Origin: an uncultured Bacilli bacterium
Lineage (GTDB): Bacteria; Bacillota_I; Bacilli_A; RF39; UBA660
NCBI GenBank assembly: GCA_947625505.1
Contig: CANQON010000004.1
Location: 23,498 to 87,497, forward strand
DNA length: 64,000 bases
Reading direction: 5' to 3'
Position 1 is the stretch's first letter, and each line of letters opens with the position of its first letter. The notes below the pieces were generated by a model. The model had not been told where the DNA came from. It worked only from the letters and a program-made list of their open reading frames with translations, and did not search any database. The translations under genes were made by a program, and so were the position numbers. Positions 29,596 through 60,071 of this stretch are shown here, piece by piece.

Positions 29596-29637
29596 TACTA
29601 TTCTTTATCATCGATTTCTATATGTATTTTAACTTAT

Positions 29638-37253: not shown

Positions 37254-37305
37254 TTTAACCTCCACGTGTAACATTTTACACTTTATAACAATTTATAAAA
37301 ATGTA

Positions 37306-37980: not shown

Positions 37981-37996
37981 ATCACTCACCAATTAT

Positions 37997-38026
37997 ATTA
38001 TAAGTGTATTTATTAACACTTGTCAA
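37997..38026 (-). promoter_or_regulatory. promoter of the nrtR-paralog-1 operon with an inverted repeat in the spacer
   Basis: Minus strand reads TTGACA-AGTGTTAATAAATACACT-TATAAT. The spacer holds the AGTGT...ACACT inverted repeat and TGTTAATAA, a 9/11 match to the NAD palindrome. Confidence 0.55.
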
Positions 38027-43215: not shown

Positions 43216-43238
43216 AAGAAGGATAATCCTTCTTTTAT
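43216..43238. terminator. bidirectional terminator
   Basis: AAGAAGGA-TAA-TCCTTCTT hairpin between convergent stops. Confidence 0.65.
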
Positions 43239-44038: not shown

Positions 44039-44846
44039 TCTTATATCTAAATAGAGCTGAAGGACGATGTCCTCCACCTTGTTTAACTTTATTTGTTTTT
44101 TCTACTTTATCAGCTATTATTCTTCTAAAAGCAGGATCTAATAGTTTCTTCCCTAAAATAACTTCATATACTTGTTGTAACTCTCCTAAAGTAAAATATT
44201 CAGGCATCATATTAAAGACAATATCGGTATAAGATATTTTATTTCTTAATCTACATATACCTGATGTAATAACTAAAGGATGATCAAATGCTAATTTATC
44301 ATTTTTTAATACTTTAAACTTATAACGATCAGTTGTTAATTCTTTTAAAGTTTTACCAATAGTAAAATGAATTGTTTCTTCTCCATTATCTAATGTAACA
44401 TCAATTGTTTTATCATCTTCCAAATAATTAACATTAAACCATGAAGCATTAGGAGATAACTTATCATTAAGACGAGCTTTATCTACTAAAGCCATATATG
44501 ATGTTGAAATAATACGCATTCTAGGATCACGATTAGGTTCTCCATAAGTATATAATTGTTCAAGATATATATCTTTTAAATTAGTCTCATCTTTTAAAAT
44601 ACGTTTAGGAGCATCCTCAATATCTTCATCAATACGAACAAATCCTCCAGGTAAGCACCATTTATCTTTAAAAGGGTAATCATCTCTTTTAACTAATAAT
44701 ACACTATAATACTTCTTACTTAATTTACGATAATTACTTTCTTCTTCACTAGATACACTAAGAATTAATATATCCGTTGTAATCGAAAAGCGATCATAAT
44801 CATTAGGATTATATGCTTTTAAAAATTCTTCTTCTGTCTTATACAT
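44022..44846 (-). CDS. NrtR-like regulator (degenerate Nudix domain plus C-terminal winged HTH), paralog 2
   Basis: Degenerate Nudix box GGFVRIDEDIEDAPKRILKDETN. C-terminal FTLGELQQVYEVILGKKLLDPAFRRII wHTH. AGAGGTG RBS. Confidence 0.75.
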   Translation of the reverse strand: MYKTEEEFLKAYNPNDYDRFSITTDILILSVSSEEESNYRKLSKKYYSVLLVKRDDYPFKDKWCLPGGFVRIDEDIEDAPKRILKDETNLKDIYLEQLYTYGEPNRDPRMRIISTSYMALVDKARLNDKLSPNASWFNVNYLEDDKTIDVTLDNGEETIHFTIGKTLKELTTDRYKFKVLKNDKLAFDHPLVITSGICRLRNKISYTDIVFNMMPEYFTLGELQQVYEVILGKKLLDPAFRRIIADKVEKTNKVKQGGGHRPSALFRYKNAKKN

Positions 44847-44875
44847 AATAACACCTCTATTTCATTATAACATAA

Positions 44876-44886
44876 TGTTAATAACA
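44876..44886. promoter_or_regulatory. NAD-cassette palindrome copy between the PRT-like gene and nrtR paralog 2
   Basis: TGTTAATAACA. On the minus strand it abuts TGTTATAAT (an internal extended -10 promoter). Confidence 0.55.
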
Positions 44887-44892
44887 TCACAA

Positions 44893-45357
44893 CTAATGAA
44901 AATCATAATAGCGATAAAAACTTTCAACATTTTGACTTTTTTCTTTATTACCATCATAAAAAACATAACTTTTTAAAAAGATACCATTATTTACTTCAAT
45001 ATACTTTTGAACAACATCTCTCGTTTTTCCACTCCAAAAACTATCATCTAAAAAGATATATTTCTTATGATTTAAATCATAATTATCTAAACCTATATCA
45101 TTACCTTTACGAAGTGCTCCATTACATACTAATACTTCTTTATGAGGATGATAATTATTTAAATAGAAATCATTAAAACGTTTACCAAACTTACCACTAA
45201 CGATAAATCCATCAAACTCTTCATTAGTTAAAACATGATTAATCATTGTATATAACCAAGCATCATTAATTCTAATTTCTTCATCTAAAGCATCAAAGAA
45301 TGTTTCTCCTCCTACATATTTAATTAATAAGTCATTTACCATATTTACCATATTCAT
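44893..45357 (-). CDS. small type-I phosphoribosyltransferase-like protein, function unknown
   Basis: 154 aa. KYIFLDDSFWSGKT matches the PRPP-binding loop pattern (hydrophobic4-DD-x-x-[ST]G-x-T). First gene behind NAD cassette copy 1. Confidence 0.55.
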   Translation of the reverse strand: MNMVNMVNDLLIKYVGGETFFDALDEEIRINDAWLYTMINHVLTNEEFDGFIVSGKFGKRFNDFYLNNYHPHKEVLVCNGALRKGNDIGLDNYDLNHKKYIFLDDSFWSGKTRDVVQKYIEVNNGIFLKSYVFYDGNKEKSQNVESFYRYYDFH

Positions 45358-45417
45358 ATTTATCCTCCTTATGTTTTTAACATCTTATTAATATCTAATT
45401 CTAAAAAAATATTATAC

Positions 45418-45457
45418 TTGTTATTAACATTATATTAAAAACATAACGATATGTCAA
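45418..45457 (-). promoter_or_regulatory. NAD promoter-operator cassette, copy 1
   Basis: Identical 27-mer at 45418-45444. Minus strand: TTGACA (45457-45452)-N17-TATAAT (45434-45429), then the palindrome TGTTAATAACA (45429-45419). Confidence 0.75.
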
Positions 45458-45489
45458 TAACTTTCAAAAAAAAGTAGTAAAAACTACTT

Positions 45490-46689
45490 TTATTCATATT
45501 TTTTCTTTAAAATTACTAATCCCATTAACATAGTAATCATTGTTCCAAAGATAATGTAATAGCTAATAATATTATCACTAGTTTCTGGAATAGTTATTTC
45601 TGGTTCAGGTTTTACGATAGCACCTAAAGTATATGGATTAATACTTGTTCCCTCACCCATAACAGCTAAATTACCATTTATGACAATTACAGGTCTTACA
45701 TATTCATATAGACTATGAAAGTATGACCAGCCTTCAGCGCAATCACCTATTGGCATACTAATATGATAATTGTTAATGTAGAAAGATAAGTCTCCATATA
45801 AGAAATCACCAGAAACAACATTATTCTCTATTGCTTCTTCCCCATATCCTGACATGGTTGGATATGTACCTCTAAAACTTAAATAGCTCTTTACCTGGTT
45901 GCCATAATTTTCTACTTCTTCACGATTAGAATAATCATCATTTAGTTTATGATTCTCTAAGTTATCTTGTATTCCTGCATAAATAGCTTCATCAATAGTT
46001 AATTCACCAACAGGATATTTTAATAAACCATTACCTAGTTCTTTGCTAACAGTAAATGAATTTTCCTTATTAGGACATGTTAGTGTTGGTTTTCCTTCTA
46101 TATATCGAAAATAAGCATTAGTATATTTTTCGTTACTAGTAGATCTTACAATATCATTACAATATATTTCATCATAAATTGACTCTGTATAATCTACTAA
46201 TTTATTTTCATACCATGATTCAATCATTTGTTTTTCATCGCTATCAGCATAAGTATTTGATACTCCATTACTAGTATAATCCTTATCATACTTTAATTCT
46301 TCATCATACTCTAAAACACCTGTACAAGTACCATCAGAATTTGGTTTACCACCATATATTAGTTTAACTCCTCCGTTGTCCGTTGTTCTTACGATTTGCC
46401 AACATAAATTAGCATATTTAAGCCAATTATTATCAATATTACCACGATAATAATGAATTGGGTAAGTATCTTTTAAAGTTGAAGCAATTGTATATACTCC
46501 CTTTCCATTTGTATCTGATGAAGTATATTTAAAATTAATACCATTATCATACGTGACAAATTCACTCTTTATATTATCAGCAGTTGCTTGTGATGCAATC
46601 TTATTATATAAAGACTCTTCTTTAGCATATACGGGATAACTTGTTAGAGAAAATATTAATGTTAAAATCAATAATATTATTTTTTTCAT
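45490..46689 (-). CDS. secreted surface protein with a C-terminal sorting-like signal
   Basis: Signal peptide MKKIILLILTLIFSLTSYPVYA (start 46689, GAGGTG RBS). C-terminus is IPETSDN, then a hydrophobic helix, then KKKYE. Confidence 0.6.
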   Translation of the reverse strand: MKKIILLILTLIFSLTSYPVYAKEESLYNKIASQATADNIKSEFVTYDNGINFKYTSSDTNGKGVYTIASTLKDTYPIHYYRGNIDNNWLKYANLCWQIVRTTDNGGVKLIYGGKPNSDGTCTGVLEYDEELKYDKDYTSNGVSNTYADSDEKQMIESWYENKLVDYTESIYDEIYCNDIVRSTSNEKYTNAYFRYIEGKPTLTCPNKENSFTVSKELGNGLLKYPVGELTIDEAIYAGIQDNLENHKLNDDYSNREEVENYGNQVKSYLSFRGTYPTMSGYGEEAIENNVVSGDFLYGDLSFYINNYHISMPIGDCAEGWSYFHSLYEYVRPVIVINGNLAVMGEGTSINPYTLGAIVKPEPEITIPETSDNIISYYIIFGTMITMLMGLVILKKKYE

Positions 46690-46723
46690 TATTTGTTCAC
46701 CTCTATTATAATAAGTATAATCC

Positions 46724-46740
46724 AAAAAAAAAAAAAAAAA
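46724..46740. repeat. A17/T17 homopolymer tract
   Basis: 17 consecutive A on the plus strand, 35-50 nt upstream of the surface-protein start. Part of the conserved element 46724-46766. Confidence 0.9.
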
Positions 46741-46773
46741 CAAGTAACTTTTTTGAAAGATATACTAATATAT

Positions 46774-46805
46774 AAAAAACTATACTAATATATCTTTTAG
46801 TATAG
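46774..46805 (-). terminator. rho-independent terminator of pncC
   Basis: CTATACTAA-N8-TTAGTATAG perfect 9-bp stem followed by T6 on the minus strand. Overlaps the stop. Confidence 0.7.
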
Positions 46806-47247
46806 TTTCTACTTCTTTAATAATTATTTTCTTACATTTATCTCTTTCTAGATTAGGTAATATAATCTTATTAGTATGATAAGTATTTAAATCATTATCA
46901 TAAATACTAATATAAACAACATTATCTTCACCATTTAAATTATTAGGATCTTGTCTATTTATTTTACCTGTTATCCCTACTCCATAACTAGAACTCGCAT
47001 ATTTCGCAATATTATAACTCATTTCTTTTGCTACTTCTTCACTATATACTGTATAAGTATCAATAGTCTCTTTATTAACACCCATTTTTATTTTATATTC
47101 ATTAGAATATGTAACAGCACTAAATCTTAATACTTCACTAGCACCTGGAATATTAGTTATAGCGTTCGCTACTCCTCCACCAGTACATGATTCCATCGTC
47201 GCTATCGTCTTATTATTAGCTTGTAAAAGTTTAACTATTTGTTTCAT
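46780..47247 (-). CDS. pncC: nicotinamide-nucleotide amidohydrolase (CinA C-terminal domain, PncC)
   Basis: ATMESCTGGGVANAITNIPGAS signature. 155 aa. Confidence 0.8.
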   Translation of the reverse strand: MKQIVKLLQANNKTIATMESCTGGGVANAITNIPGASEVLRFSAVTYSNEYKIKMGVNKETIDTYTVYSEEVAKEMSYNIAKYASSSYGVGITGKINRQDPNNLNGEDNVVYISIYDNDLNTYHTNKIILPNLERDKCKKIIIKEVETILKDILV

Positions 47248-48106
47248 ATTTTATTTTTTTCTCCTTATCTTTCGTTTTTATCATATTATAAAACTGATCA
47301 ATAACATTTAATTGTTCACTATTTAAGTATTTTTTAGCTTCTTCAATTAATTCTTTAGGTACACCATAATAAGCTTCTAATATTGAACAAGTGATAGCTG
47401 CGATAGTATCACTATCTCCTCCTATTGAAATACTTTTACGGAGTCCATCTTCAAAACTATCAGCTACTAAGAAACAATATATAGCCTGAGGAACAGAATC
47501 TATAGCAGCACTTTTAAAAGTATAATTATGTCTTAAATCATCTAAATTAAATTCCAAACGATAATGATAACGAAATGATAAATAAGTCATAATTTGTTCT
47601 TTAGAAAAACCATGACGCGCTAAATAGATAGCTGAAGCAACAGTGCAAGCTGCATCTACACATTCATTATTATTATGTGTTGGTAAAGTAGATAAACGTG
47701 CTTCTTGTTCTACTTTTAGTAGTTCATCAAAAGCATAACCAATAGGTCCTACTCTCATCGCACATCCATTACCTATACTATGTCCATATTTATCTTGTTT
47801 TAACCATTCACAAAAGTTATAACTAAATCTACTTCGTCCATACTTATCAATACCAAGATTTACTTCCTCTTGTCCATAAGTTCTTAAATATTTTTCATAG
47901 TCTTTATCATGCATAATAGCGTCACCAATCGCTAATGTTAAAACAGTATCATCGGTATAAGATGAATCACTAGTAAATAATGGTGTCTTATTATCCATAA
48001 TAAGCATTCTCTCTTCATAAGAACGTTTATTATGTTCTTTTTTAGCTTTTACTTCTAATACTTCATATATTGATCCTACAATATCACCAATTATGGCTCC
48101 CCACAT
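47231..48106 (-). CDS. ADP-ribosylglycohydrolase family protein
   Basis: N-terminal WGAIIGDIVGSIYE, YTDDT and GGDSDTIAAI motifs. Start at the ATG at 48106, behind an AGGTGA RBS. Confidence 0.8.
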   Translation of the reverse strand: MWGAIIGDIVGSIYEVLEVKAKKEHNKRSYEERMLIMDNKTPLFTSDSSYTDDTVLTLAIGDAIMHDKDYEKYLRTYGQEEVNLGIDKYGRSRFSYNFCEWLKQDKYGHSIGNGCAMRVGPIGYAFDELLKVEQEARLSTLPTHNNNECVDAACTVASAIYLARHGFSKEQIMTYLSFRYHYRLEFNLDDLRHNYTFKSAAIDSVPQAIYCFLVADSFEDGLRKSISIGGDSDTIAAITCSILEAYYGVPKELIEEAKKYLNSEQLNVIDQFYNMIKTKDKEKKIKYETNS

Positions 48107-48136
48107 ATATATCACCTAATTAATTATTATAACAAA

Positions 48137-48727
48137 TTAATTATCTTTCTCATATAATTTATTCAATTTAATATATTTTAAAACATTCTTATCCATAACA
48201 TCATCCACATTAAGATTATTTTTTAATTTATCTCTAATTATCGTCGATGATAAATTATAAAGAGGAATACTTGTAATAATAATATTATCTTTATATTCTT
48301 GATACTTTTTTAATAGTTCTTTAATATTGTCTCCTTTTCTTTTAATGACTAATATTTTATAGTTATTTAAAATATCCATACCATTTTTCCATTTATCAAT
48401 GTAACTTAAATTATCTGTTCCACATATAAAATATATTTCATCATTGGGATATAATAATTTAAAATGTTCTAACGTCTCACAAGTATAAACCACATAATCT
48501 TTTAATTCAAAATTACTTACTTCCATATTAGGATTATTTTTAATCATTAACTTTATCATATCCAAACGATAATTATCTTTTAATAAATTATTTTTATATT
48601 GATATTCACTACCTGTAGGAACAAAGATTATCTTATCTACATAATCTTTATTAATTAATTCTTTAGCTATTTTTAAATGCATTTTATGAGGAGGATTAAA
48701 ACTACCTCCAAAGATACCTATACGCAT
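48137..48727 (-). CDS. nadD: nicotinate-nucleotide adenylyltransferase
   Basis: GIFGGSFNPPHKMH and ISSTIIR motifs. Confidence 0.9.
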   Translation of the reverse strand: MRIGIFGGSFNPPHKMHLKIAKELINKDYVDKIIFVPTGSEYQYKNNLLKDNYRLDMIKLMIKNNPNMEVSNFELKDYVVYTCETLEHFKLLYPNDEIYFICGTDNLSYIDKWKNGMDILNNYKILVIKRKGDNIKELLKKYQEYKDNIIITSIPLYNLSSTIIRDKLKNNLNVDDVMDKNVLKYIKLNKLYEKDN

Positions 48728-48743
48728 AATATTACTCCTTATA

Positions 48744-48783
48744 TTGTTATTAACATTATATTAAAAACATTATATATTGTCAA
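48744..48783 (-). promoter_or_regulatory. NAD promoter-operator cassette, copy 2
   Basis: Identical 27-mer at 48744-48770. TTGACA (48783-48778)-N17-TATAAT (48760-48755), palindrome 48755-48745, then an AAGGAG RBS. Confidence 0.75.
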
Positions 48784-48805
48784 GATATAAAAAAGAAAAA
48801 ACACT

Positions 48806-49894
48806 TTAGTGTTTCTTCTTACGACTTTTCTCTATTTTCTTAAGCATTTCTTTTTTGCCATTTTCTAAAACATGAATAGATTCTTGATTATGAAGAGTAT
48901 TTATTATACGCGCAATAAATTTAGAACAGTCTACTTCATGGAACCATTCACATTTTTTAATTTCTTCAGGTACATAAGATAGATTAGTTGAATATATCAT
49001 CGTAAATAATCCTTCTTCATATGCTTCTTGGAATTTTTCTGTTCCTTCAGTAAATAACGAAAAAGTAGCAATTGGAAAAATCTTTTTAGCTCCCCTTTTC
49101 TTTAGTTCTTGAGCTACATCTAGAATAGATCCTCCAGACGCTATCATATCATCAACGATTAAGATATCTTTATCTTTAACATCGCTTCCCATATAGATAT
49201 GATCAACAATCGGATTTTTGCCATTAACGACTTTACTTAGATCACGTCTTTTATAGAAGACACCGACATCACAACCTAACATTTCAGCATAATATCTAGA
49301 TCTTTCCATAGCTCCCATATCAGGACTTACAACTAATAAATTATCGATATCTTCTTTCTTAATTAAATCTTCAAGAATAATATGTGTCGGGTAAAAATTT
49401 TCAAATGGTAGATTAGGTATTGAGTTATTAACATTAACATCATGAGCATCAAAAGTTACAATATCATCTACTCCTAGATTCTGTAATTCCTGTAAAGCTA
49501 TCGCACAGTCTAAAGATTCTCTTCCTTTTCTTTTATGTTGTCTTGATTGATATAAAAGTGGCATAACAAGTGTTATTTTAGCACTATGCCCACTTGTTGC
49601 GCTAACGATACGTTTAACATCTTGGAAATGTTCATCAGGAGACATATAATGTGGCATACCATGCATCATATAATTAATACTATAATTACCTACATCACAT
49701 AAGATATATAAATCTTGACCTCTTACTGTATCATTAATCGTAACTTTGCCTTCACCATTAGAAAAACGAACATTAGATATATTAATTAAATAATCTTCTT
49801 TTTCTTTACGAATTTTTTGTAATTCTTTATTAACTTTTTCCCCTACTTCTTTAAAGTTTTCTAAAACAATTAATTTCATATTATTCTTCTTCAT
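48806..49894 (-). CDS. prs: ribose-phosphate pyrophosphokinase (long form)
   Basis: FSNGEGKV, RQHKRKGRES and the ILIVDDMIASGGSI PRPP loop. Start at the ATG at 49894, behind a GGAGG RBS. TTGACT-N17-TATATT promoter upstream, with no NAD palindrome. Confidence 0.85.
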   Translation of the reverse strand: MKKNNMKLIVLENFKEVGEKVNKELQKIRKEKEDYLINISNVRFSNGEGKVTINDTVRGQDLYILCDVGNYSINYMMHGMPHYMSPDEHFQDVKRIVSATSGHSAKITLVMPLLYQSRQHKRKGRESLDCAIALQELQNLGVDDIVTFDAHDVNVNNSIPNLPFENFYPTHIILEDLIKKEDIDNLLVVSPDMGAMERSRYYAEMLGCDVGVFYKRRDLSKVVNGKNPIVDHIYMGSDVKDKDILIVDDMIASGGSILDVAQELKKRGAKKIFPIATFSLFTEGTEKFQEAYEEGLFTMIYSTNLSYVPEEIKKCEWFHEVDCSKFIARIINTLHNQESIHVLENGKKEMLKKIEKSRKKKH

Positions 49895-50001
49895 ACTACC
49901 TCCATATACCCTATTAACTATTTTCAACTACAATATAGTAAAATTAAATATTAAAGTCAATACTTTTTAGATAAAAAGAAAAAATAACTTTTCAGTTATT
50001 T

Positions 50002-50649
50002 TTACTCAGTAATCCATAGACAATATAAGTTTTCAAAAATAGCAATATCTTCTGGTGTAAAAGTATTAACTATAGCTTCTGAAATACTTCCTCTAATAGC
50101 CATATCTTTACTATATAAACTAGTTTCAGAAACATAACTAGTCGTAAATGGTTGAAAATCTACTTTAACACAATCTTTTAATTTTTTATTAGCAGCTAAA
50201 GCGATAGCGTTTGCTTTACTTAAAGCATCCTCATAAGCAAGCTCTAAAACCTCTTTACGGCATTCTTTTTCGTCTTTAACGCCAAAGTCTACTTGACATA
50301 TTGGAGGATTATCTAATTTCGATATTTCGACCATCATACGAGCCATTTTCTCACGATCATAATCAAATTTAAGAGTAGCATCTTGATTAAAAGAAAAGCC
50401 ATCAGGATAATATTGACGTGATACTTCATCATATCTTTTTTCCTCACGAATAACAAAATTACGTGTTTTTAAATCTTCTTTAGCAAAACCTTCTTTTAAA
50501 AGTAAATTATTAACGAAATCTTGGACATGTGTTACACCTTCACTTAAAACTTCTTCATAAGTTTGTCCTTTGTATTGAAATGTTATTCGCATCTTTACTT
50601 CATCAGGCTTAACATATTTAACACCACTACCTTGTACATTTATTTCCAT
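50002..50649 (-). CDS. SIMPL (DUF541) domain protein
   Basis: INVQGSGVKYVKPDEVKMRITF start and overall pattern of SIMPL / 26-kDa periplasmic immunogenic proteins. No signal peptide seen. Confidence 0.65.
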   Translation of the reverse strand: MEINVQGSGVKYVKPDEVKMRITFQYKGQTYEEVLSEGVTHVQDFVNNLLLKEGFAKEDLKTRNFVIREEKRYDEVSRQYYPDGFSFNQDATLKFDYDREKMARMMVEISKLDNPPICQVDFGVKDEKECRKEVLELAYEDALSKANAIALAANKKLKDCVKVDFQPFTTSYVSETSLYSKDMAIRGSISEAIVNTFTPEDIAIFENLYCLWITE

Positions 50650-50698
50650 TCTATCATCTCCTATTTAATTATAACATTTAAATAAAAGAAAGAAAACG

Positions 50699-53600
50699 TT
50701 ATGCCGTCTTCTTTCTTAATTTACGAAATACGAAGATTGAAATAACTAGTCCAACAAGACATGTTACAAAAAGCATGATATATTTTATAGAATTATCTAA
50801 AGTTAATGGACTTTTTATAACTTCATTAGTAATAGTTACTGTAATATCATTGTTAACTACACCTTTATTATTTTCATATGTTGTATTATAACCATTCTTA
50901 TTAGCGTCTATTTCAATTATTTCATATTGGGTATTATATGGTAAATTAATAGTTATTTTTTGATTATTTTTTAAAGTAATATTACCTATATAAGTATCAT
51001 TTTCATCTTTTGTAAACTTGATTATTCCATCTTCAATATTAGTACCTTTATAAGCTATATTTTCTTCTAAAGGTACATCAGGATTTTCAACTAAACGAAT
51101 TTCAAAACTAAATTCTTGATCTGTTTTAGTTTCTCCTTTAACTATTTTTTCAATAGTTAAATCATAATAAGAATACTTTTTATTATAGAATTCAATAGTT
51201 GGATTTTCACCTGTTAAAGTACCTTCTAAATTACCTTTAGTTGTTGTTTTATAATCATCTTGATTTGCTTCTACTTCTTCTAATTTATATTGAACACCAT
51301 TAGGTAAATCTTTTATTGTTATAGTTTCTTTATCTTTAATTTTAATTGTTCCTTCATATTTATTTTCACTATTAGTTAAAGATAAAATACCTTTTGTTCC
51401 ATCTTCATTAATAGTTTGATAAGATGTATTTAATGTTTGATTACTTGGCGCAACTAAAGTTACTTTAATAGTCCATTCTTTATCAGTTTCACCTAAGTCA
51501 CCACTTACAAACTTCTTAATAATTAAATCATTTTGTAATACTTGTAATTTACCATTATTACCTTGATACATATTTATAACAATATTATTACCATCATTAA
51601 ATCCTGTTGTTGATTCACTAATAGAAGGTAATATATAAGATGAAGAGGTCTTAGTATTATTAGTTTCTTTAGTAACTAGTTCATCTTGCATATTACCAGC
51701 AATTAAACCACCTGGTTTAGTAGCTATAACCCAATCCGTATGTGTATCTTCTGGTTTAGTTGTACTAAAGTTTTTCCAAATATTAGCTGATGGACTATAC
51801 CAACATAGATATTCGCCAAAGCTAATATTTTGTCCACTAATACCTGTTCCAAACTCTTTTCCTTGTCTTAAAAGCGCTACATGACATATTTCTTCTTCAT
51901 TAGGCATATAATAATCTATTACAATGTAATAATATTTATTAGAATTTTCATTATCAACCTTATTTACCGTTTTATGATTTTTAATAAATGTTTTATAACT
52001 AGCATCATCAAGAATTATTTCCTTCTCTTGCTTATCTTCCGCAGTTGCTTCATATAGTATCAATGGTGTATTAGATGTAAAGTATTGATTGTCTGAACTT
52101 GGTGAGAATGATATAGTAGCATCACCATGTGTACTATTATTTATTTGTTTATTTGAAAAATAATTAGCATAGAATGAAATATATTTTTTAGAGTCAACTT
52201 CTTCGGTATTTTGAGCAATATATTCTTTAGAAACTTTAGATAAATTAATTGACCCATCAGCATTTTTTATAGCGCTATCTATTCCAACCGTATAATAAAC
52301 GCGTAATGGCGTTGCTTCCTCATATTTATCTAAGTTATCACTATAAGATATAACTTTATTATTTTCATCAATTTGTATTTCAGCAACTTCTAAAGGCAAA
52401 GCATTTCTTGGAATATTAATATATAATGTTTCATCATATGTATCATAACTACTAGTCTTTGAGTTACTATCTTCTTTACTTTCAACATACATTAAAATAC
52501 TACTTAAATTAAATGTAACATTATAGTTAGTATTACCATTTACATCTTCCATTTTATATGAAAGATTATTTTGAACATCACCATCTTGTGAAACAATTTT
52601 ATAATATTGTCTTGTATAATTATATTTTTCAGGTTTAACATCATATTCAGTAACACTGTTATCAGCATTAACAACACAATATTTTAATTTATCTTTAACA
52701 ACATTGTAGAACTTACCAAATAGGGAAACATTTTTAATTTCTTTAACTTCCATGTATTTGCCAATTGGATCTATATATGTTAAATAATCTTTAATACCTA
52801 TATCATTAACACCTGAAATTGGTTTTAAAACTTGTTCAGTTATTGTAATAAGCATATTCTTAAATACATTTGTTAATTGATCAGTATCTGTTTCCATATA
52901 TTGGTCAATATAATATACATCTTCAACTGATGTTACATCGTATTTGGCAGCATCACCTGTTGGATGATTAAATGTCCAATTAGCTTTTATTTGTTTATCT
53001 GCCCACTTATAATTACCAAATGAAAAAGTTGGAGTATTTCCTTTTAAATATTCTTCAAATGCATTGTAAGACGTTTTTAAATATTCATTATCAACATCGG
53101 CTGTAAAATATTTACGTGGATCCATTGTTGCCCTTAATTGAAACTGTGAATATTCAGATTGCGTATATACATTTAAACCAATTCCAAAGCCATACATAGA
53201 TACATCTGAACCATCAATACTATTTTTAGTATAATTATCTTCTACCCAATTTTTCATATAGCCTGCTGTTAACAAAACACTTAAAGTTCTAGGAGGCATG
53301 GTATAAACTGTTTCTTCATCTAAATGAAAATAAATTGGATTACCATTAGCTTCAGCTATATAATTTTTATAAGTATTTCCTTTTTGTTCAACAGGTAATA
53401 TAGCTTTACCATCACTACTATCTGTCCAACTTAGTGGATTCCAGAAATCAATACGTGATTTTTCATCATATTTAGCTGTACTTGTAGCACCAACAACGTT
53501 AGTTCCACCATCTGTTAAAGTAATTAAAATTGGTGTACGATTCATAGTTATATTAGTTACTGGATTGGTATATGTAGTATTTTTTTCTGTAGCAAGTAAA

Positions 53601-54376
53601 TACATTCCTTGATATAAAGCTCCTTGTAAATATGTTGAATCAGCAAACATTGGATCACTTGTTTTATTTTTTATTTTATCAGTTTCTTTAACATGAGTTG
53701 TTACTTTTGGCCATAATTTATCTCGCCCACTTACTCTATCAAGGGTTAAATAATCTTCTTGACCTTCTTCTAATTCATAATGACTTAATGGCAATAATAC
53801 TTGAGTTCCACCAGCATATACGATAATTCCTACACGGTTATTGGGATGAACATACTCAATATCATCATTATCTCCCATTAAGGTTTTAATTAAAAAGTTA
53901 GCTGATTTAATTGCTTCCGCATCAGCATAATGATCTGACATAGAGGTAGAAACATCAATTAATAAAACAACATCTAGAGGAACACTTTCTAGTCTAGATA
54001 CTCTTTTACTACTACCTAAAGCAGAATAAACATGTAAGAAATCGCTATCGTTTGTAATGGTACCAGATACACCATCTGTTTCTCTATCTAAAGTTAAAGT
54101 TGATGATGAAAGAACAGTCTTATCTGACCAAATCTTACCAGCATTTTTAGATCCTGTCTTATCATTGATAAGATAGTCTTTATAACTATCCATCGTATTA
54201 TTATCTACAATATAACTTATGTTATTATTACCTAATTCACCTGCTACATAATCGCCACTTAACTTTTTATTACTCTTACTTATATTAGCATGTTTAATAG
54301 CTAGTGGCGTTATTAATGAGCAAATGACAAGTGATAAACTAATAACTAAGGCAAGTAATTTATATTTTATCTTCAT
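50699..54376 (-). CDS. large surface adhesin-like protein: signal peptide, vWA domain, C-terminal Cna-B/SpaA-like repeats, sorting-like signal
   Basis: MKIKYKLLALVISLSLVICSL signal (start 54376). MIDAS DVVLLIDVSTSMSD. Two repeats (KKFVSGDLGETDKEWTIKVTL...YKLEEVEA..DYKTT and EKIVKGETKTDQEFSFEIRL...YEIIEIDA..GYNTT). Tail is SPLTLDN, then a TM helix, then RKLRKKTA. Confidence 0.8.
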   Translation of the reverse strand: MKIKYKLLALVISLSLVICSLITPLAIKHANISKSNKKLSGDYVAGELGNNNISYIVDNNTMDSYKDYLINDKTGSKNAGKIWSDKTVLSSSTLTLDRETDGVSGTITNDSDFLHVYSALGSSKRVSRLESVPLDVVLLIDVSTSMSDHYADAEAIKSANFLIKTLMGDNDDIEYVHPNNRVGIIVYAGGTQVLLPLSHYELEEGQEDYLTLDRVSGRDKLWPKVTTHVKETDKIKNKTSDPMFADSTYLQGALYQGMYLLATEKNTTYTNPVTNITMNRTPILITLTDGGTNVVGATSTAKYDEKSRIDFWNPLSWTDSSDGKAILPVEQKGNTYKNYIAEANGNPIYFHLDEETVYTMPPRTLSVLLTAGYMKNWVEDNYTKNSIDGSDVSMYGFGIGLNVYTQSEYSQFQLRATMDPRKYFTADVDNEYLKTSYNAFEEYLKGNTPTFSFGNYKWADKQIKANWTFNHPTGDAAKYDVTSVEDVYYIDQYMETDTDQLTNVFKNMLITITEQVLKPISGVNDIGIKDYLTYIDPIGKYMEVKEIKNVSLFGKFYNVVKDKLKYCVVNADNSVTEYDVKPEKYNYTRQYYKIVSQDGDVQNNLSYKMEDVNGNTNYNVTFNLSSILMYVESKEDSNSKTSSYDTYDETLYINIPRNALPLEVAEIQIDENNKVISYSDNLDKYEEATPLRVYYTVGIDSAIKNADGSINLSKVSKEYIAQNTEEVDSKKYISFYANYFSNKQINNSTHGDATISFSPSSDNQYFTSNTPLILYEATAEDKQEKEIILDDASYKTFIKNHKTVNKVDNENSNKYYYIVIDYYMPNEEEICHVALLRQGKEFGTGISGQNISFGEYLCWYSPSANIWKNFSTTKPEDTHTDWVIATKPGGLIAGNMQDELVTKETNNTKTSSSYILPSISESTTGFNDGNNIVINMYQGNNGKLQVLQNDLIIKKFVSGDLGETDKEWTIKVTLVAPSNQTLNTSYQTINEDGTKGILSLTNSENKYEGTIKIKDKETITIKDLPNGVQYKLEEVEANQDDYKTTTKGNLEGTLTGENPTIEFYNKKYSYYDLTIEKIVKGETKTDQEFSFEIRLVENPDVPLEENIAYKGTNIEDGIIKFTKDENDTYIGNITLKNNQKITINLPYNTQYEIIEIDANKNGYNTTYENNKGVVNNDITVTITNEVIKSPLTLDNSIKYIMLFVTCLVGLVISIFVFRKLRKKTA

Positions 54377-54407
54377 ATTCAAAATTCCTTTCACATAATG
54401 AGTATAA

Positions 54408-54518
54408 ATGTCTAAATTATGTCCCATAACAAATTTCTTTAACTATTAATGATAGAAGTAATAATAATTATTAAAGAAATATAGTGTATCTTTAGTGAAT
54501 AGAACACAATTTAGACAT
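54408..54518. repeat. nested inverted repeats in the adhesin 5' leader
   Basis: Outer 11-bp inverted repeat ATGTCTAAATT (54408-54418) / AATTTAGACAT (54508-54518). Inner 10-bp inverted repeat ATTTCTTTAA (54433-54442) / TTAAAGAAAT (54471-54480). A further 8-bp hairpin at 54528-54555. Confidence 0.8.
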
Positions 54519-54571
54519 CTAAACTACGAATAGTATTCTTTTATCTCTACTATTCAGTGTCATAATATCAT

Positions 54572-54609
54572 AAAAAAAAAAACAAGTAATATTTTCGCTA
54601 GATATACTT
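54572..54609 (-). terminator. probable nadE terminator ending in a T11 tract
   Basis: Minus strand: AAGTATAT-CTAGCGAAA-ATATTACTT (one bulge), then G and T11. Shares CAAGTAA-N10-AGATATACT with 46741-46766. Confidence 0.55.
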
Positions 54610-54628
54610 ATTTTTTAAATTTTTTATT

Positions 54629-56548
54629 TTAGATAATATCATCAAGCCAAATGCTAACATCGGCATCACTTGGCATACGAAGATCTCCTCTAGGAGATAA
54701 ACTAATTGTTCCTACTTTAGGTCCATCAGGCATACAACTTCTTTTAAATTGTTGACTAAAGAATCTCTTTAAAAAGAATGTTAACCATTTTTTAATTGTT
54801 TCTGCATCATACATATCTTTAAATGTTTTCGTAGCTATTAAATAAATTTTACTAAGTGTAGCGCCATATCTTAAGAAATGATATAAGAAGAAGTCATGAA
54901 GAATATATGGACCTACACTGTTTTCCGTTTTTTGACGAATATTTCCTTTTTTATCAGGAGGTAATAATTCAGGACTAATTGGTGTATCTAAAATATCATA
55001 AATAGTATCTTTGATATCTTCATGTGTATCAGCTATCCATTTAACTAAATATCTTACTAAGGTTTTAGGTATAGATGTATTAACAGCATACATACTCATA
55101 TGATCACCATTATAAGTACACCAACCAAGTGCTAACTCTGATAAATCACCTGTACCAATAACTAATCCTCCTTCTTTATTAGCTATATCCATTAATATTT
55201 GTGTTCTTTCTCTTGCTTGACTATTTTCATAGGTAATATCGTAATTATTTGGATCTTGTCCTATATCTTCAAAATGTTTTAAACATGATTCTTTAATATT
55301 TATTTCTTTTAAAGTAGCTCCCATATTATTTATTAAGTTAAGAGCATTCTGATAAGTTCTACTTGTTGTACCAAAGCCTGGCATTGTTACGGCAATAATA
55401 TTATCATTGGAAATATCTAATTTCTTATAAGCTTCTTTAATAACTAAAAGAGCTAAAGTAGAGTCTAATCCTCCTGATATACCAATAACTGTTTTTTTAA
55501 TACCTGTATGTTTTAATCTTTTGGCTAAGCCACATGCTTGAATATTAAATATTTCATAACAACGATTATTTCTTATTTCTTCATTACTAGGTACAAAAGG
55601 ATATGGTGTATATTCTCTTAATAAGTTATCATTAGTATCTTTAATATCAATATTTATCTTACGATATTTTAAAGTAGGTTTAATCCCCATATAACTAATA
55701 TCTTTATAACGATTATTCATTAACTTATTAATATCAATATCGGTTATAATCATATTACTATTAAAATCAAATCTTTCACTTTCTTTAATAATGGTTCCAT
55801 TCTCAGCTATAATGCTATGGCCTGAAAAGACCACATCAGTAGTTGATTCATTAACACCTGATGATGCATAAATATAAGCACTTATCGTTTTAGCAGATTG
55901 CATTCTAACTAAGTTTTGACGATATTCATATTTACCTATTATTTCATTACTAGCTGATAAATTAAAAATCATACTAGCACCATTTAAAGCATGTTCATTA
56001 CTAGGAGGATTAACACTCCATAAGTCTTCACATAATTCAACGCCAAAACAAATACTTTTATTTTCTTTATCCTGAAATAAGATATTAATACCAAAAGGTA
56101 CTTCTTCATCTAAAATATTAACTGTCTCACTAATAGCATTCGTACTAGAAGCAAACCAACGCTTTTCATAAAATTCACTATAATTAGGTATATATGTTTT
56201 AGGTATCATACCTAGTATTTTACCTTTATTAATAACTACTCCTACATTAAATAATTGATTATCTAAAGATATAGGCATACCAATAATAGCTATTATATTT
56301 AATTTAGATGTTTCTTTTAATATTAATTCTAATCCTTTTAAAGATTCATCAAGTAAAACATCTTGATGAAATAAATCATTACATGTATATCCTGTTAAAG
56401 ATAGTTCTGGTAAAGTTACGATTTGTACTCCCTTATTATTTGCTTCTTTAATTAACTTAATTATTTCTTTAACATTAAAAGATACATTACCTACTTTAAG
56501 ATTAGGTGTAATAGCTCCTACTCTTACATATCCACATTTCTTTAACAT
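54629..56548 (-). CDS. nadE: glutamine-dependent NAD+ synthetase
   Basis: N-terminal nitrilase domain (LPELSLTGY, GVELCEDLW) and a C-terminal synthetase with the SGGLDS PP-loop. 639 aa. Confidence 0.9.
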   Translation of the reverse strand: MLKKCGYVRVGAITPNLKVGNVSFNVKEIIKLIKEANNKGVQIVTLPELSLTGYTCNDLFHQDVLLDESLKGLELILKETSKLNIIAIIGMPISLDNQLFNVGVVINKGKILGMIPKTYIPNYSEFYEKRWFASSTNAISETVNILDEEVPFGINILFQDKENKSICFGVELCEDLWSVNPPSNEHALNGASMIFNLSASNEIIGKYEYRQNLVRMQSAKTISAYIYASSGVNESTTDVVFSGHSIIAENGTIIKESERFDFNSNMIITDIDINKLMNNRYKDISYMGIKPTLKYRKINIDIKDTNDNLLREYTPYPFVPSNEEIRNNRCYEIFNIQACGLAKRLKHTGIKKTVIGISGGLDSTLALLVIKEAYKKLDISNDNIIAVTMPGFGTTSRTYQNALNLINNMGATLKEINIKESCLKHFEDIGQDPNNYDITYENSQARERTQILMDIANKEGGLVIGTGDLSELALGWCTYNGDHMSMYAVNTSIPKTLVRYLVKWIADTHEDIKDTIYDILDTPISPELLPPDKKGNIRQKTENSVGPYILHDFFLYHFLRYGATLSKIYLIATKTFKDMYDAETIKKWLTFFLKRFFSQQFKRSCMPDGPKVGTISLSPRGDLRMPSDADVSIWLDDII

Positions 56549-56550
56549 AT

Positions 56551-57144
56551 TTATCTCCTTTTTATATATTCTTTAACTCTTTCAATAAGTAATTTACTAT
56601 TAAAACTTTTAAAATAGCCTAAAGCATTAAGTTCTAATACTTCATCATAAGTACACTTAAAAGGTTTTATTATTTCATCTTGATCTAAATGTTGACTAGT
56701 AACTTGTTCACAATCGTAAGCTAAAAATAAACTATTTAAAGCACTAGAACAACCTTCATCTTGATAAGCTTCATCAAGTAAAATCATTTTACCTGCTTGA
56801 TAACCATGTTCTTCTTTTAATTCACGGCGTGCTCCTACTTCTTTATCTTCTCCAAGTTCAATATATCCTGCTGGAAAACCTAGTTGTACTCCCTCTTTTG
56901 TAAATACCCTTGGTTCAACATTTAATAATACTTCATTATTTTTTGTTAAAGCAAATATTATCGCAGCACTTCCATCCTTTTTACCTTTAAGTAATTTTTC
57001 TCTTAAAAAAATACTACCACATTTTAAATGAATTTCATAAACTTCACTCGATATAAATCTGGGATCTATATCTTTTTTTATTCTTGTTACAACTTGTAAT
57101 TCTTTTAAATAACTATTTAGTTCTTCTAACTTTTCTCTACGCAT
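56551..57144 (-). CDS. NUDIX hydrolase (probable ADP-ribose pyrophosphatase)
   Basis: Intact Nudix box GYIELGEDKEVGARRELKEEHGY. Overlaps the pncB end by 8 nt. Confidence 0.75.
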   Translation of the reverse strand: MRREKLEELNSYLKELQVVTRIKKDIDPRFISSEVYEIHLKCGSIFLREKLLKGKKDGSAAIIFALTKNNEVLLNVEPRVFTKEGVQLGFPAGYIELGEDKEVGARRELKEEHGYQAGKMILLDEAYQDEGCSSALNSLFLAYDCEQVTSQHLDQDEIIKPFKCTYDEVLELNALGYFKSFNSKLLIERVKEYIKRR

Positions 57145-58720
57145 GATATTGTCCTATCTTTTTTTGTTTTTCTCTTACTTCATCAGTATGTTCTTTAATC
57201 ATTTGTTTTTTAAGCGCTAATAACTTTTCACTTAAGTCAACATAGTATTCATGAGGGTTTATAGCGAACTTAATTTCTGGATATAAAGTAGCAAATTCAT
57301 GATCACAATATTCTTTACTTTCTAAAGTACTAGGTACTTCATATACTTGTTTACCATTTAAGAAAATAGGTACTTGTAATTCACGGACATGGTAATCAGT
57401 GATATCTTTTCTTTTCCATTCTTCCGTTGGTGATACTAAAGTATAACCATTAGTTGGAATAACTTCATCAGCAAGGGCAACTACATCACCTAATGCATAA
57501 CCTGTCTTTACATCATAAAAGCGATATACTTTTTTATAACCTGGATTAGTTATTTTTACTTCTGAGTCACTTAGTTTAATTCTTGGAACTGCTTTACCAT
57601 TTTCTAAAACAGCTACTAATTTATATACACCATTCATACGTCCTATAGGAGCTATCGCATTATCACCTGCTCCTAAATTATCAATAGGTGCTCCCTCTCT
57701 TTTTAACTTTTCTATTTCTTTTTCTGTTAAACCATTCGTAACAAATATTTTAGTATCTGTCATTCCTGCTTCATCTAACATTCTTCGACTTTCTTTAGAT
57801 AAATATACTAAGTCACCACTATCAATTCTAATACCTTTAAAAGGATACCCATGAGGTATTAAATAATCTTTAGCTACTTTAATAGCAGCAGGTATACCAC
57901 TATATAAAGTATTATAAGTATCAACAAGCGCTATAAAATTATAAGGATTAGATTTAGCATACGCTAAAAAAGCATCATAATCATTACCATAAAATTCAAT
58001 AATAGAATGTGCCATAGTTCCAGAAGGAATTAAATCATATTCTTGGGCAGCTAAAACATTAGATGTACTACTAAATCCTCCAATAGCTGCATGTCTTGAT
58101 CCTTGAGTAACAGATACACCATGACCTCTTCTAGCTCCAAAGTCCGCAATGCTCATAGGGAAAGCTGCATTAGCCATTCTTTTCGTCGCAGTAGCAATTA
58201 AGCTACCATGATTGAAATAAGCTAACATAAGTGTTTCTAATAATTGGGCTTCAATAATATTAGCTTTTACAGTAATAACAGGTTCATTAGGGAATATTGG
58301 TGTACCATCAGGAACAGCCCAAATATCACCTGTAAATTTTAAATTTTTTAAATAAGCTAAGAACTCTTCTGTAAACTTACCTGTACTTCTTAAATAGTCA
58401 ATATCTCCATTAGTAAAATGAAGATTACGAACATAATCAATTATTTCTTTTAAACCAGAACTAATAGTGTATCCACTGCCAAATTCATGACTACGAAAGA
58501 AAACATCAAAGTAAGCTTTTGTATCCTTATCTTTTGTATCAAAAAATGTCTGAGACATGGTAAATTCATAAAAATCAACTAACATTGTTAAATTAGGCTT
58601 TTGATTTTTTAAAATAGCTTGTTTTAAATCTTCCCATGTTTTAACACTATCATCTTCTAATTCAATCATTTTTTTGACATCTTCAACACTCATAAAATCC
58701 ATTGCTTTATTTTTTTCCAT
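57137..58720 (-). CDS. pncB: nicotinate phosphoribosyltransferase
   Basis: DFYEFTMSQ, the FGARRGHG region and GIRIDSGDL motifs. Start at the ATG at 58720, behind an AGGAGTG RBS that overlaps the pncA stop. Confidence 0.9.
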   Translation of the reverse strand: MEKNKAMDFMSVEDVKKMIELEDDSVKTWEDLKQAILKNQKPNLTMLVDFYEFTMSQTFFDTKDKDTKAYFDVFFRSHEFGSGYTISSGLKEIIDYVRNLHFTNGDIDYLRSTGKFTEEFLAYLKNLKFTGDIWAVPDGTPIFPNEPVITVKANIIEAQLLETLMLAYFNHGSLIATATKRMANAAFPMSIADFGARRGHGVSVTQGSRHAAIGGFSSTSNVLAAQEYDLIPSGTMAHSIIEFYGNDYDAFLAYAKSNPYNFIALVDTYNTLYSGIPAAIKVAKDYLIPHGYPFKGIRIDSGDLVYLSKESRRMLDEAGMTDTKIFVTNGLTEKEIEKLKREGAPIDNLGAGDNAIAPIGRMNGVYKLVAVLENGKAVPRIKLSDSEVKITNPGYKKVYRFYDVKTGYALGDVVALADEVIPTNGYTLVSPTEEWKRKDITDYHVRELQVPIFLNGKQVYEVPSTLESKEYCDHEFATLYPEIKFAINPHEYYVDLSEKLLALKKQMIKEHTDEVREKQKKIGQYHA

Positions 58721-58731
58721 CTTTAACACTC

Positions 58732-59391
58732 CTATCTTTTAACCTTTTGATATCCTAAAACATTAATACCTGCTTGATTCATAAATTTAAAAGCCATATC
58801 ATTCCATTCTTGGCGATCATGTATTCCTTCTTCTATTAGTCTTCCCTCTTGATCATATAAATTAGGTTTAATTTGATATGTTTCAACAGCTTCTGTTGGT
58901 ACTATTACTTCAATATCAATATTTAATTCATCACATAATTTTTTTAAAGGAATAGCTAAATCCATAACACATATATCTGTACAACATCCTACAATTTTAA
59001 TTCTCTTTAATTTAGGATTTGTTAAAGCCTTTTTGATAAAAGGTAAGAAAGTATTTGTCTGTCCTGCCCAAATGGTACTAGTAGAATTTTTTTCAAATTC
59101 ATAACAATAAGGTAGTAAATCTCTTAATTCATCAATTAAGCTAGATTCCCATGAATCTTTTAGGCAATGTTCAGGATGTACTTTAAATTCCATAGCGCCC
59201 TTTTCATGAGCATCACGAATTACTACAACATTCTTACTTAAATTTTGAATAGCTTCTTCCATATAATTTCTTATAGTTGGTACAATGTGCATAATGTAAG
59301 GATCAGCCATAACTCCTCCTTTCATAAATCCATTAATCATATCAACAACAATAATCATTTCTTCTGTTTCATTTATATTTTTCTTTTGCAT
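58732..59391 (-). CDS. pncA: isochorismatase-family cysteine hydrolase, probable nicotinamidase
   Basis: IVVDMINGF (Asp), PEHCLKDSWES, and VGCCTDICVMD (Cys). Operon position upstream of pncB. Confidence 0.7.
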   Translation of the reverse strand: MQKKNINETEEMIIVVDMINGFMKGGVMADPYIMHIVPTIRNYMEEAIQNLSKNVVVIRDAHEKGAMEFKVHPEHCLKDSWESSLIDELRDLLPYCYEFEKNSTSTIWAGQTNTFLPFIKKALTNPKLKRIKIVGCCTDICVMDLAIPLKKLCDELNIDIEVIVPTEAVETYQIKPNLYDQEGRLIEEGIHDRQEWNDMAFKFMNQAGINVLGYQKVKR

Positions 59392-59415
59392 TTTATCCTC
59401 CTCTTATTAATATAT

Positions 59416-59426
59416 TGTTAATAACA
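59416..59426. promoter_or_regulatory. second NAD palindrome in the pncA leader
   Basis: TGTTAATAACA, centred 50 bp downstream of the cassette palindrome and about 10 nt upstream of the GAGGAGG RBS. Confidence 0.55.
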
Positions 59427-59464
59427 TAATATAAATTTTTAAGACTTATTTGTCTTGTTATTAA

Positions 59465-59505
59465 CATTATATTAAAAACATAATATATTTGTCAATATGT
59501 TTTTA
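59465..59505 (-). promoter_or_regulatory. NAD promoter-operator cassette, copy 3
   Basis: Identical 27-mer at 59465-59491. TTGACA (59505-59500)-N18-TATAAT (59481-59476), palindrome 59476-59466. Confidence 0.75.
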
Positions 59506-59561
59506 TCATTTTTTTAAAAAGATTTTAAATAATAAAAAAATAGTAATAAATTATTACTATT

Positions 59562-60068: not shown

Positions 60069-60071
60069 TTC

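Follow-up and report, generated by a model that had tools for sequence, protein, structure and literature searches.

NrtR regulons were first set out in 2008 (PMC2330246). Their operators are lineage-specific palindromes, mostly 21 bp long, with a core split by seven bases (N7); operators arranged in tandem function as well, and binding is relieved by ADP-ribose (PMC2330246). The core dinucleotides are GT-N7-AC or TG-N7-CA in 12 of 18 groups, the rest diverging from both, and the C. acetobutylicum regulon comprises nrtR-pncA-pncB-nadD-nadE (PMC2330246). In Mycobacterium, the NrtR box reads GTTTTCGA-N7-TCGAAAAC (PMC6800001), and a dimer of Bacteroides thetaiotaomicron AraR (BtAraR) covers 25 bp of DNA (PMC4666351). 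In two further systems of nicotinamide adenine dinucleotide (NAD) metabolism, the type I operator of NiaR, an imperfect repeat of 22 bp, has a core resembling TGTCTTGTCA, and that of enterobacterial NadR is an 18-bp palindrome, TGTTTA-N6-TAAACA, bound by the helix-turn-helix (HTH) domain of NadR (PMC2330245). Here we compare with these systems a repeated promoter element from an uncultured Bacilli bacterium (contig CANQON010000004.1; the 64-kb stretch that was analysed is referred to as the window). The element, an identical 27-mer, heads three NAD operons: pncA-like/pncB/Nudix/nadE, nadD/ADP-ribosylglycohydrolase/pncC and an operon made up of a phosphoribosyltransferase-like (PRT-like) gene, the regulator gene nrtR2 and nadK. 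An original prediction, made from the DNA letters of the window, had taken it for a promoter combined with a repressor operator. Our results make us fairly confident that the three NAD promoters carry operators, most likely bound by the neighbouring NrtR2, which would regulate itself.

Results

The repeated unit is a 25-bp palindrome

The 27-mer TTGTTATTAACATTATATTAAAAACAT (plus strand) has exactly three exact copies in the window, at 45418-45444, 48744-48770 and 59455-59481. At up to three mismatches no additional copies were found in the window, and shuffled sequences lead one to expect none. The three identical copies had been correctly recognized, while the third had been placed at 59465-59491, ten positions too high. 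The claim that an 11-bp palindrome within the element occurs five times, with less than one copy due to chance, also proved right: TGTTAWTAACA has five exact matches in the window, at 44876, 45419, 48745, 59416 and 59456, against a chance expectation of 0.17, and none of 100 shuffles reached five. What did not hold is the 11-mer as the operator unit. Within the 27-mer, 25 bases make up an imperfect palindrome, TGTTTTTAA-TATAATG-TTAATAACA (termed O1), and the 11-mer is merely the right arm of this palindrome plus two bases of its spacer. The general form of the operator, again a 25-bp imperfect palindrome, is TSTTWTTAA-N7-TTAAWAASA. Allowing up to two mismatches, this pattern has eight matches in the window against 0.94 expected. 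Seven of them fall in four regulatory regions, and the eighth (14093-14117, two mismatches) is located within a coding sequence, in agreement with the chance level. The seven sites, where five had been proposed, comprise O1 at all three promoters, a second class (O2) at two of them, a third class (O3) at the pncA promoter and one site before nrtR2. We rejected the 11-mer as the binding unit on three grounds. The 25-mer positions that make up its TG...CA palindrome (2, 10, 16 and 24) are the most variable, TTWTTAA/TTAAWAA are almost invariant, and the 11-mer is missing from O3 sites (TCTT...AAGA). Two dimers sitting on neighbouring 11-mers would be formally possible, but the 25-bp unit is favoured. 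The idea of a palindromic repressor site itself is supported by the comparative evidence given below.

Probable operators are built into three consensus promoters

On the minus strand, each 27-mer lies inside a promoter, two of these having the form TTGACA-N17-TATAAT and the one at pncA the form TTGACA-N18-TATAAT. This is how the element had been read originally, and all three promoters turn out to be perfect 12/12 matches to the consensus; within positions 43000-60500 (17.5 kb) they are the only ones. In all three, O1 spans the promoter spacer, the -10 element and the expected start site.

At the pncA promoter (all elements on the minus strand), O3 (59498-59522; TCTTTTTAA-AAAAATG-ATAAAAACA, one mismatch) ends 2 bp upstream of the -35 TTGACA (59490-59495). 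O1 (59456-59480; TGTTTTTAATATAATGTTAATAACA, no mismatches) includes the -10 TATAAT (59466-59471) and constitutes the core of the 27-mer, whereas O2 (59402-59426; TGTTATTAACAATATATTAATAAGA, no mismatches) is positioned just upstream of the ribosome-binding site (RBS) and includes the 11-mer at 59416-59426. A hairpin, AAGAC-aaataa-GTCTT (59441-59456, minus strand), begins at the final base of O1, which is the predicted 5′ end of the transcript. The nadD promoter (minus strand; -35 at 48778-48783, -10 at 48755-48760) has an O1 free of mismatches (48745-48769) followed directly by the RBS, with neither O2 nor a leader. The promoter of the PRT-like/nrtR2/nadK operon (minus strand; -35 at 45452-45457, -10 at 45429-45434) combines an O1 without mismatches (45419-45443) with an O2 (45372-45396; AGATATTAATAAGATGTTAAAAACA, two mismatches) just upstream of the RBS. 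Within the same operon, the internal site before nrtR2 (44862-44886, minus strand; TGTTATTAACATTATGTTATAATGA) has two mismatches, and its weak arm is the extended -10 element TGTTATAAT (44864-44872; TATAAT at 44864-44869) of a secondary nrtR2 promoter.

Each cassette is preceded by a terminator-like hairpin and a T run, which means that three separate transcription units start at the cassettes. Ahead of the pncA cassette there is a hairpin rich in A+T, TAGTAAT..ATTACTA, with a T run behind it (59534-59559, minus strand), which was noticed by eye and missed by the terminator scanner, as the latter needs three G-C pairs; it is likely the terminator of the preceding gene. Another hairpin (48793-48820, minus strand) follows prs directly upstream of the nadD cassette. 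The third one, AAAAGTAG-tttt-TACTACTTTTTTTT with a T run (45466-45490, minus strand), also identified by eye, lies upstream of the PRT-like cassette and is likely a terminator as well. One more terminator-like hairpin is found near nadK (43213-43237).

The 25-bp sites are conserved in uncultured gut Bacilli

The comparison set consisted of 80 loci, one per species, from uncultured gut Bacilli, collected around NrtR2 orthologues (70-86% identity). The closest relatives are metagenome-assembled genomes (MAGs), namely 'Candidatus Coprovivens', Clostridium sp. CAG:433 and Mycoplasma sp. CAG:776. Synteny is kept in nearly all 80 loci, with the order pncA-pncB-nudix-(nadE)-(prs)-nadD-(ADP-ribosylglycohydrolase)-pncC-(nadK)-nrtR2. 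In the 1.36 Mb scanned, TSTTWTTAA-N7-TTAAWAASA has 223 matches with up to two mismatches, whereas the same arms separated by any other spacer of 3-11 bp yield only 17-57 matches each. The related loci account for 215 of the 25-bp sites. Exact 11-mers in the loci are arms of such a site in 75 of 83 cases; conversely, the exact 11-mer is missing from 138 of the 215 sites. The near-invariant operator positions are TTWTTAA and TTAAWAA (TT.TTAA, TTAA.AA).

Defined as TTGACA, TATAAT and the 11-mer together, there are 69 distinct promoter cassettes, 66 in the relatives and three in the window; every one is on the coding strand, and all but one (68/69) have a 17-bp spacer. Orthologous upstream regions, the footprinting of which had been called for along with the original prediction, show the cassette at the head of NAD genes in dozens of related species. 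The O1 consensus, TGTTtTTAATATAATGTTAaTAACA, lies over the promoter spacer, the -10 element and the start site, that of O2, TGTTATTAAcAAAatGtTAAaAAgA, just before the RBS, and that of O3, TCTTTTTAAnAAaaTGTTAAAAAgA, ends 2-3 bases ahead of the -35 element. The arms are common to O1, O2 and O3, also where promoter elements impose no constraint. AAT/AGT variants are seen in O1, while O2 sites in the same genomes retain the ATT form. The position of O3 is kept in 34 cassettes of relatives, and its start is mostly 41 bp from that of O1, as seen in 31 of the adjacent pairs measured; the O1-O2 distance in relatives is mostly 54-56 bp.

These data bear on the idea that the element contains no repressor site whatsoever and is a strong promoter module, which duplication or gene conversion has copied among the three operons and which is kept for promoter function alone. 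The copies are indeed identical over 27 bp, including the perfect -10, and the promoters match the consensus perfectly. Yet the conserved arm TGTTTTTAA is located in the promoter spacer and TTAATAACA downstream of the -10 element, and RNA polymerase requires a specific sequence at neither. Moreover, the same arms with N7 recur at O2 and O3, both of which are devoid of promoter elements, and the flanks vary between copies and species, whereas dozens of species retain the palindrome at orthologous positions. We therefore consider promoter function alone a highly improbable explanation.

The sites mostly precede NAD genes

The 215 sites group into 117 regions, of which 64 hold two to four sites, and these multi-site regions are followed by NAD genes, by nrtR2 or, in a few cases, by genes without annotation. 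All but a few of the sites lie before pncA, pncB, prs, nadD, nadE, pncC, nadK or nrtR2. Counted over the regions, the nearest genes are pncA (44), nrtR2 (10), pncB (about 10), prs (8), nadD (5), the PRT-like gene (5), pncC (3) and NH3-dependent nadE (3). Inspection of the unannotated cases added a small unknown protein in five loci and one other unknown protein. About a dozen single two-mismatch matches are in unrelated open reading frames (ORFs) or non-coding DNA and correspond to the background of the wrong-spacer controls. Sites before unrelated genes or inside coding sequences, which had been named as evidence that would speak against a NAD regulon, are almost absent from the loci scanned.

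We also scanned metagenomes without the nrtR2 anchor, using a pattern that matched only promoters with an 18-bp spacer. With this pattern the cassette was found on two contigs, before pncA and before pnuC-nadR. In the latter case (L082:2738-4555), an O1+O2 cassette precedes pnuC (NMN_transporter) and a NadR-type nicotinamide mononucleotide (NMN) adenylyltransferase/ribosylnicotinamide kinase, with no nrtR2 within 14 kb. Therefore, the regulon in some relatives also covers nicotinamide riboside uptake.

The small protein found in relatives has about 120-140 residues (MKIDFTKEE..LIEEYY..), lacks a Pfam match and is encoded directly behind O1/O2 cassettes in several species (L027:461-877, L049:2955-3374, L035:6911-7318, L060:661-1071 and L031:3143-3499). 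In one species, this ~135-aa protein corresponds to the N-terminal part of a 307-aa PncA (L031:3554-4477). The window contains no gene for it. In three species, the gene for a 343-aa radical-SAM protein (L004:7429-8498, L006:7453-8522 and L007:7453) has either an isolated 11-mer or a weak 25-bp site in front of it. The gene is located between nadD and pncC, and the protein, methylthiotransferase-like with a UPF0004 N-terminal domain, is only a candidate member of the regulon.

NrtR2 is the most likely operator-binding protein

NrtR2 (44022-44846) has Pfam matches to PF00293 (1.3e-11) and to the winged-helix domain PF21906 NrtR_WHD (2.3e-17). It also matches the NCBIfam NrtR model at 1.7e-44, yet falls under the cut-off of this model. 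Its closest solved relatives in the PDB are BtAraR, S. oneidensis NrtR (SoNrtR) and E. faecalis 2FML, the last with an alignment along almost the entire length. An insertion of about 40 residues between the two domains is common to NrtR2 and 2FML. The Nudix box is degenerate, reading G-x5-E-x7-R followed by ILKDE (RILKDE replacing REUXEE). Of the six SoNrtR contacts with ADP-ribose, four are retained: Tyr10, Phe15 (Tyr here), Arg41 and Arg98 (contacts according to PMC4666351). The nrtR2 gene clusters with NAD genes, as it lies between the PRT-like gene and nadK, beside the nadD and pncA operons, and is embedded in such a cluster in nearly all loci.

The window encodes a second paralogue, NrtR1 (37306-37992; Pfam NrtR). 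A different palindrome, AGTGTA-N6-TACACT (38003-38020), is located exactly between the TTGACA and TATAAT elements of its own promoter and is kept in seven relatives; a copy with one mismatch is present at 37265-37282. This distinct and conserved palindrome speaks for a separate specificity of each paralogue, and may mark a separate small regulon. The NrtR1 promoter heads an operon that also encodes a histidine-phosphatase-family protein (36705-37274) and an AAA_28/NadR-kinase-like protein (35605-36705); the latter, in which no HTH domain match was found, is the window's sole NadR-like protein.

The operators might be real and might define a NAD regulon and still be bound by NrtR1, by a NiaR-type repressor encoded elsewhere or by another factor. 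For NiaR, one can point to the TGT-N5-ACA of the 11-mer, superficially like the TGT/ACA triplets of NiaR operators, and to the control of pncA/pncB by NiaR in some Firmicutes (PMC2330245); its gene, moreover, could sit outside the visible 64 kb. However, a scan of ~40 window ORFs revealed no HTH_11/3H (NiaR) protein, the C/G-containing core of NiaR type I sites, such as TTGTCTTGTCAA (PMC2330245), is missing here, and the best-kept positions are TTWTTAA/TTAAWAA with N7. As to NrtR1, it has its own palindrome and most of the motif-bearing loci lack it within 10 kb, whereas nrtR2 is embedded in the regulated cluster in nearly all of them. Taken together, a binder other than NrtR2 appears unlikely. 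The operators were also compared with the two known operator types directly. A NiaR operator was rejected on core sequence and spacing, the TGTCTTGTCA-type core being absent, and on the lack of a NiaR protein among the same ORFs. An enterobacterial NadR operator was rejected on its 6-bp arms with N6, as opposed to 9-bp arms with N7 here. By exclusion of NrtR1 and by gene clustering, NrtR2 is most likely the protein that would bind the 25-bp sites. The co-encoded NrtR named in the original prediction thus gains comparative support, its identity as the binder still being an assignment made from sequence.

Several observations weigh against this assignment or against parts of the regulatory scheme. 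The ~1.4 Mb scanned for sites consisted of loci rather than complete genomes, and since these loci were anchored on nrtR2, regulator and motif were in part bound to occur together. In the central frame, the operator core is AA-N7-TT instead of the published GT-N7-AC / TG-N7-CA, which could speak against an NrtR site; TG-N7-CA occurs solely inside each 11-mer arm. Operator sequence is documented as variable in the family (PMC2330246). The O1-O2 distance in relatives varies between 52 and 59 bp, which does not fit strict helical phasing. NrtR2 departs from SoNrtR at two of the six ADP-ribose contacts (Asn43 to Asp and Lys76 to Glu), and the effector may be other than ADP-ribose. Finally, where nrtR2 has its own upstream region, a site with up to two mismatches is present in just 4 of 41 loci and a weak one (up to three) in 23 of 41. 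The rarity of good sites directly upstream of stand-alone nrtR2 also counts in favour of another binding protein. Self-control, which had been part of the original prediction, is consequently well founded in the window, where nrtR2 belongs to an operon headed by O1 and O2 and in addition has its own upstream site, but is less clear where nrtR2 stands alone. Autoregulation would seem clear only where, as in the window, the cassette heads the operon containing nrtR2.

The extended -10 element TGTTATAAT about 50 bp before nrtR2 recurs in seven of the related loci (L014, L017, L018, L021, L028, L053 and L078). Only a few bases distinguish it from the operator arm TGTTATTAA, and in other relatives the half-site TGTTATTAA overlaps the nrtR2 start codon. 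The secondary nrtR2 promoter may provide a low, partly regulated supply of the repressor.

A 5′ hairpin accompanies many cassettes

The hairpin at the start of the pncA transcript has counterparts in relatives. A perfect stem of at least 5 bp is present at the corresponding position in 44 of 68 cassettes, compared with 5.7 in shuffles; the count was obtained by folding each sequence separately and comparing stem counts with those of shuffled sequences. The relatives have 28 different 5′ arm sequences with the pairing kept, and the stem is followed by an A-rich run, not by a T run. The hairpin is missing from cassettes in which the RBS directly follows O1, such as that of nadD in the window. 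A MAFFT/RNAalifold consensus showed no pairs, the alignment being ungapped and the loops differing in length. Our guess is that the hairpin serves as a 5′-terminal stabilising stem-loop.

Could the element act as RNA, the 5′ hairpin and an O2 hairpin forming a leader, riboswitch-like or protein-bound, that senses a NAD metabolite? O2 can be folded as an 8-bp hairpin beside the RBS, and the 5′ hairpin, with its variable sequence and retained pairing in the cassettes counted above, would fit such a role. On the other hand, O1 lies mostly and O3 wholly upstream of the start site, and yet they have the same sequence; the arms are conserved in sequence, with deviations in weak arms left uncompensated; and the nadD cassette has no leader. 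In the whole window, Rfam at gathering thresholds detected only a T-box leader (29441-29620), and no NAD+ riboswitch; for the pncA leader, nothing relevant was found in Rfam at E values up to 10. A riboswitch was rejected since the leaders match no Rfam family. Of the alternatives to an NrtR2-bound DNA operator, action as RNA strikes us as the least plausible, marginally below a bare promoter module.

Genes of the three operons and their surroundings

The NAD gene assignments made originally at the three operons are upheld by Pfam and NCBIfam. All three operons are on the minus strand. The first (54629-59391) encodes a pncA-like isochorismatase (58732-59391), pncB (57137-58729), a Nudix hydrolase (56551-57144) and glutamine-dependent nadE (54629-56548). 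The second (46780-48727) is composed of nadD (48137-48727), ADP-ribosylglycohydrolase (47231-48115) and pncC, a CinA-domain NMN deamidase (46780-47247); a 417-aa membrane protein (45490-46743) may be co-transcribed with it. The third starts with the gene for a 154-aa PRT-like protein that has no family assignment (44893-45357), followed by nrtR2 (44022-44846), which encodes a Nudix-like domain and an NrtR winged-helix domain, and by nadK, the NAD kinase gene (43235-44077; Pfam). The longest nadK ORF has a GTG start 56 bases inside nrtR2, and the true start is probably further downstream.

The 154-aa protein has no matches in Pfam or NCBIfam, and only 24 homologue clusters were found among 5.8 billion proteins. 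Its AlphaFold model (predicted local distance difference test, pLDDT, 92) resembles type I phosphoribosyltransferases, for example HGPRT and PyrR, at a template modelling (TM) score of ~0.5, and the protein retains an FxDDSxxxGxT motif resembling the loop that binds phosphoribosyl pyrophosphate (PRPP). The model thus suggests a type I phosphoribosyltransferase fold. The known phosphoribosyltransferases of NAD pathways (PncB, NadV and NadC) are type II enzymes.

The G+C content of the window is 25-28%. The T-box leader detected by Rfam (RF00230, 106 bits; minus strand) is situated upstream of an operon at 27230-29412.

Discussion

From the sites, their statistics, their position in promoters, their conservation and the genes they precede, all of which are observed, we infer a binding protein, repression and an effector in the following way. 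The three 27-mers would be the cores of three sigma-A-type consensus promoters with O1 built in, and an NrtR2 dimer would bind each 25-bp site. Bound to O1, NrtR2 would occlude the -10 element and the start site and thereby block RNA polymerase, while O2 and O3 would strengthen repression by adding cooperative binding or a roadblock. A NAD-derived metabolite would release the repressor; ADP-ribose appears the likeliest by analogy with the NrtR proteins of S. oneidensis and Synechocystis (PMC2330246). The proposed targets are pncA and pncB for niacin salvage, nadD and nadE for the universal steps, and pncC for NMN deamidation. The Nudix and ADP-ribosylglycohydrolase genes, presumed to handle ADP-ribose, nadK and nrtR2 itself would be further targets.

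A more far-reaching proposal is that, with these sites, an operator is defined for the first time for a 'long-form' NrtR subfamily (~274 aa, with an interdomain insertion as in 2FML). Here O3, O1 and O2, about 41 and 55 bp apart, would form a fixed assembly bringing several dimers together, and the regulon would point to unassigned functions in NAD/ADP-ribose recycling. For Enterococcus NrtR, the founding NrtR study could find no motif. We put this proposal forward tentatively and regard it as rather doubtful, less so, however, than binding by a protein other than NrtR2. If true, the candidates for such functions are the orphan protein with the type I phosphoribosyltransferase fold, the ~135-aa protein and ADP-ribosylglycohydrolase.

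For a widespread clade of uncultured low-GC gut Bacilli, which appear to depend on niacin salvage, the analysis supplies a precise operator, TSTTWTTAA-N7-TTAAWAASA, and a NAD salvage regulon. The regulon is useful for annotating NAD-related genes in the MAGs of this clade, and it singles out a few unassigned proteins that may take part in NAD or ADP-ribose metabolism. The NrtR paradigm is extended to one more lineage; our understanding of how NAD synthesis is controlled does not change, and a specialist will not be surprised.

How, then, does this locus compare with the described systems? NiaR (YrxA) and NadR likewise act through repressor palindromes over NAD promoters, and the NadR palindrome TGTTTA-N6-TAAACA is superficially similar to the one described here. 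The two regulators belong, however, to other protein families, neither of which was found in the window, and the spacing and core of their operators differ. With SoNrtR (prs-nadV; PDB 3GZ5/3GZ6) and BtAraR (5BS6/5DD4) the present system shares tandem sites, which in those systems are occupied by two dimers, and the 25 bp covered by BtAraR equal the length of the unit found here (PMC2330246, PMC4666351). SoNrtR is released from DNA by ADP-ribose, whereas BtAraR senses arabinose and no NAD metabolite. NrtR2 differs from both in its low sequence identity to them and in the ~40-residue insertion between the domains. In Mycobacterium, NrtR is also an auto-repressor of NAD genes; there, too, arms of 8-9 bp are exactly 7 bp apart, and the outer arm GTTTT resembles the (T)GTTTT seen here. 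The inner arm, by contrast, is TTAA here and TCGA in Mycobacterium, salvage and universal genes take the place of the de novo genes nadABC as targets, and there are up to three operators per promoter.

The Firmicutes NrtR regulons have in common with the present one a Nudix + winged-helix regulator encoded beside its targets, the targets pncA, pncB, nadD and nadE, self-control and palindromes at promoters. What sets our system apart is an operator sequence specific to these uncultured gut Bacilli and the addition of nadK, pncC, ADP-ribosylglycohydrolase, prs (in relatives), pnuC-nadR (on a single metagenome contig) and two proteins not assigned to any family. No paper describing the motif strings came up in a full-text search; the site tables in the supplement of PMC2330246 were outside this comparison, so that a Firmicutes NrtR motif listed there could match. 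The original prediction had recognized no published NrtR or NiaR consensus in the element, and as far as the sequence is concerned this agrees with the full-text search and with the different NiaR core. The geometry, on the contrary, is not new: palindromic arms split by N7, sites in tandem and an overlap with the -10 element have been described for NrtR before (PMC2330246, PMC6800001). Judged by regulator architecture, gene clustering, targets, promoter overlap and the N7 spacing, all of which fit, the element would represent a lineage-specific sequence of the known NrtR operator type.

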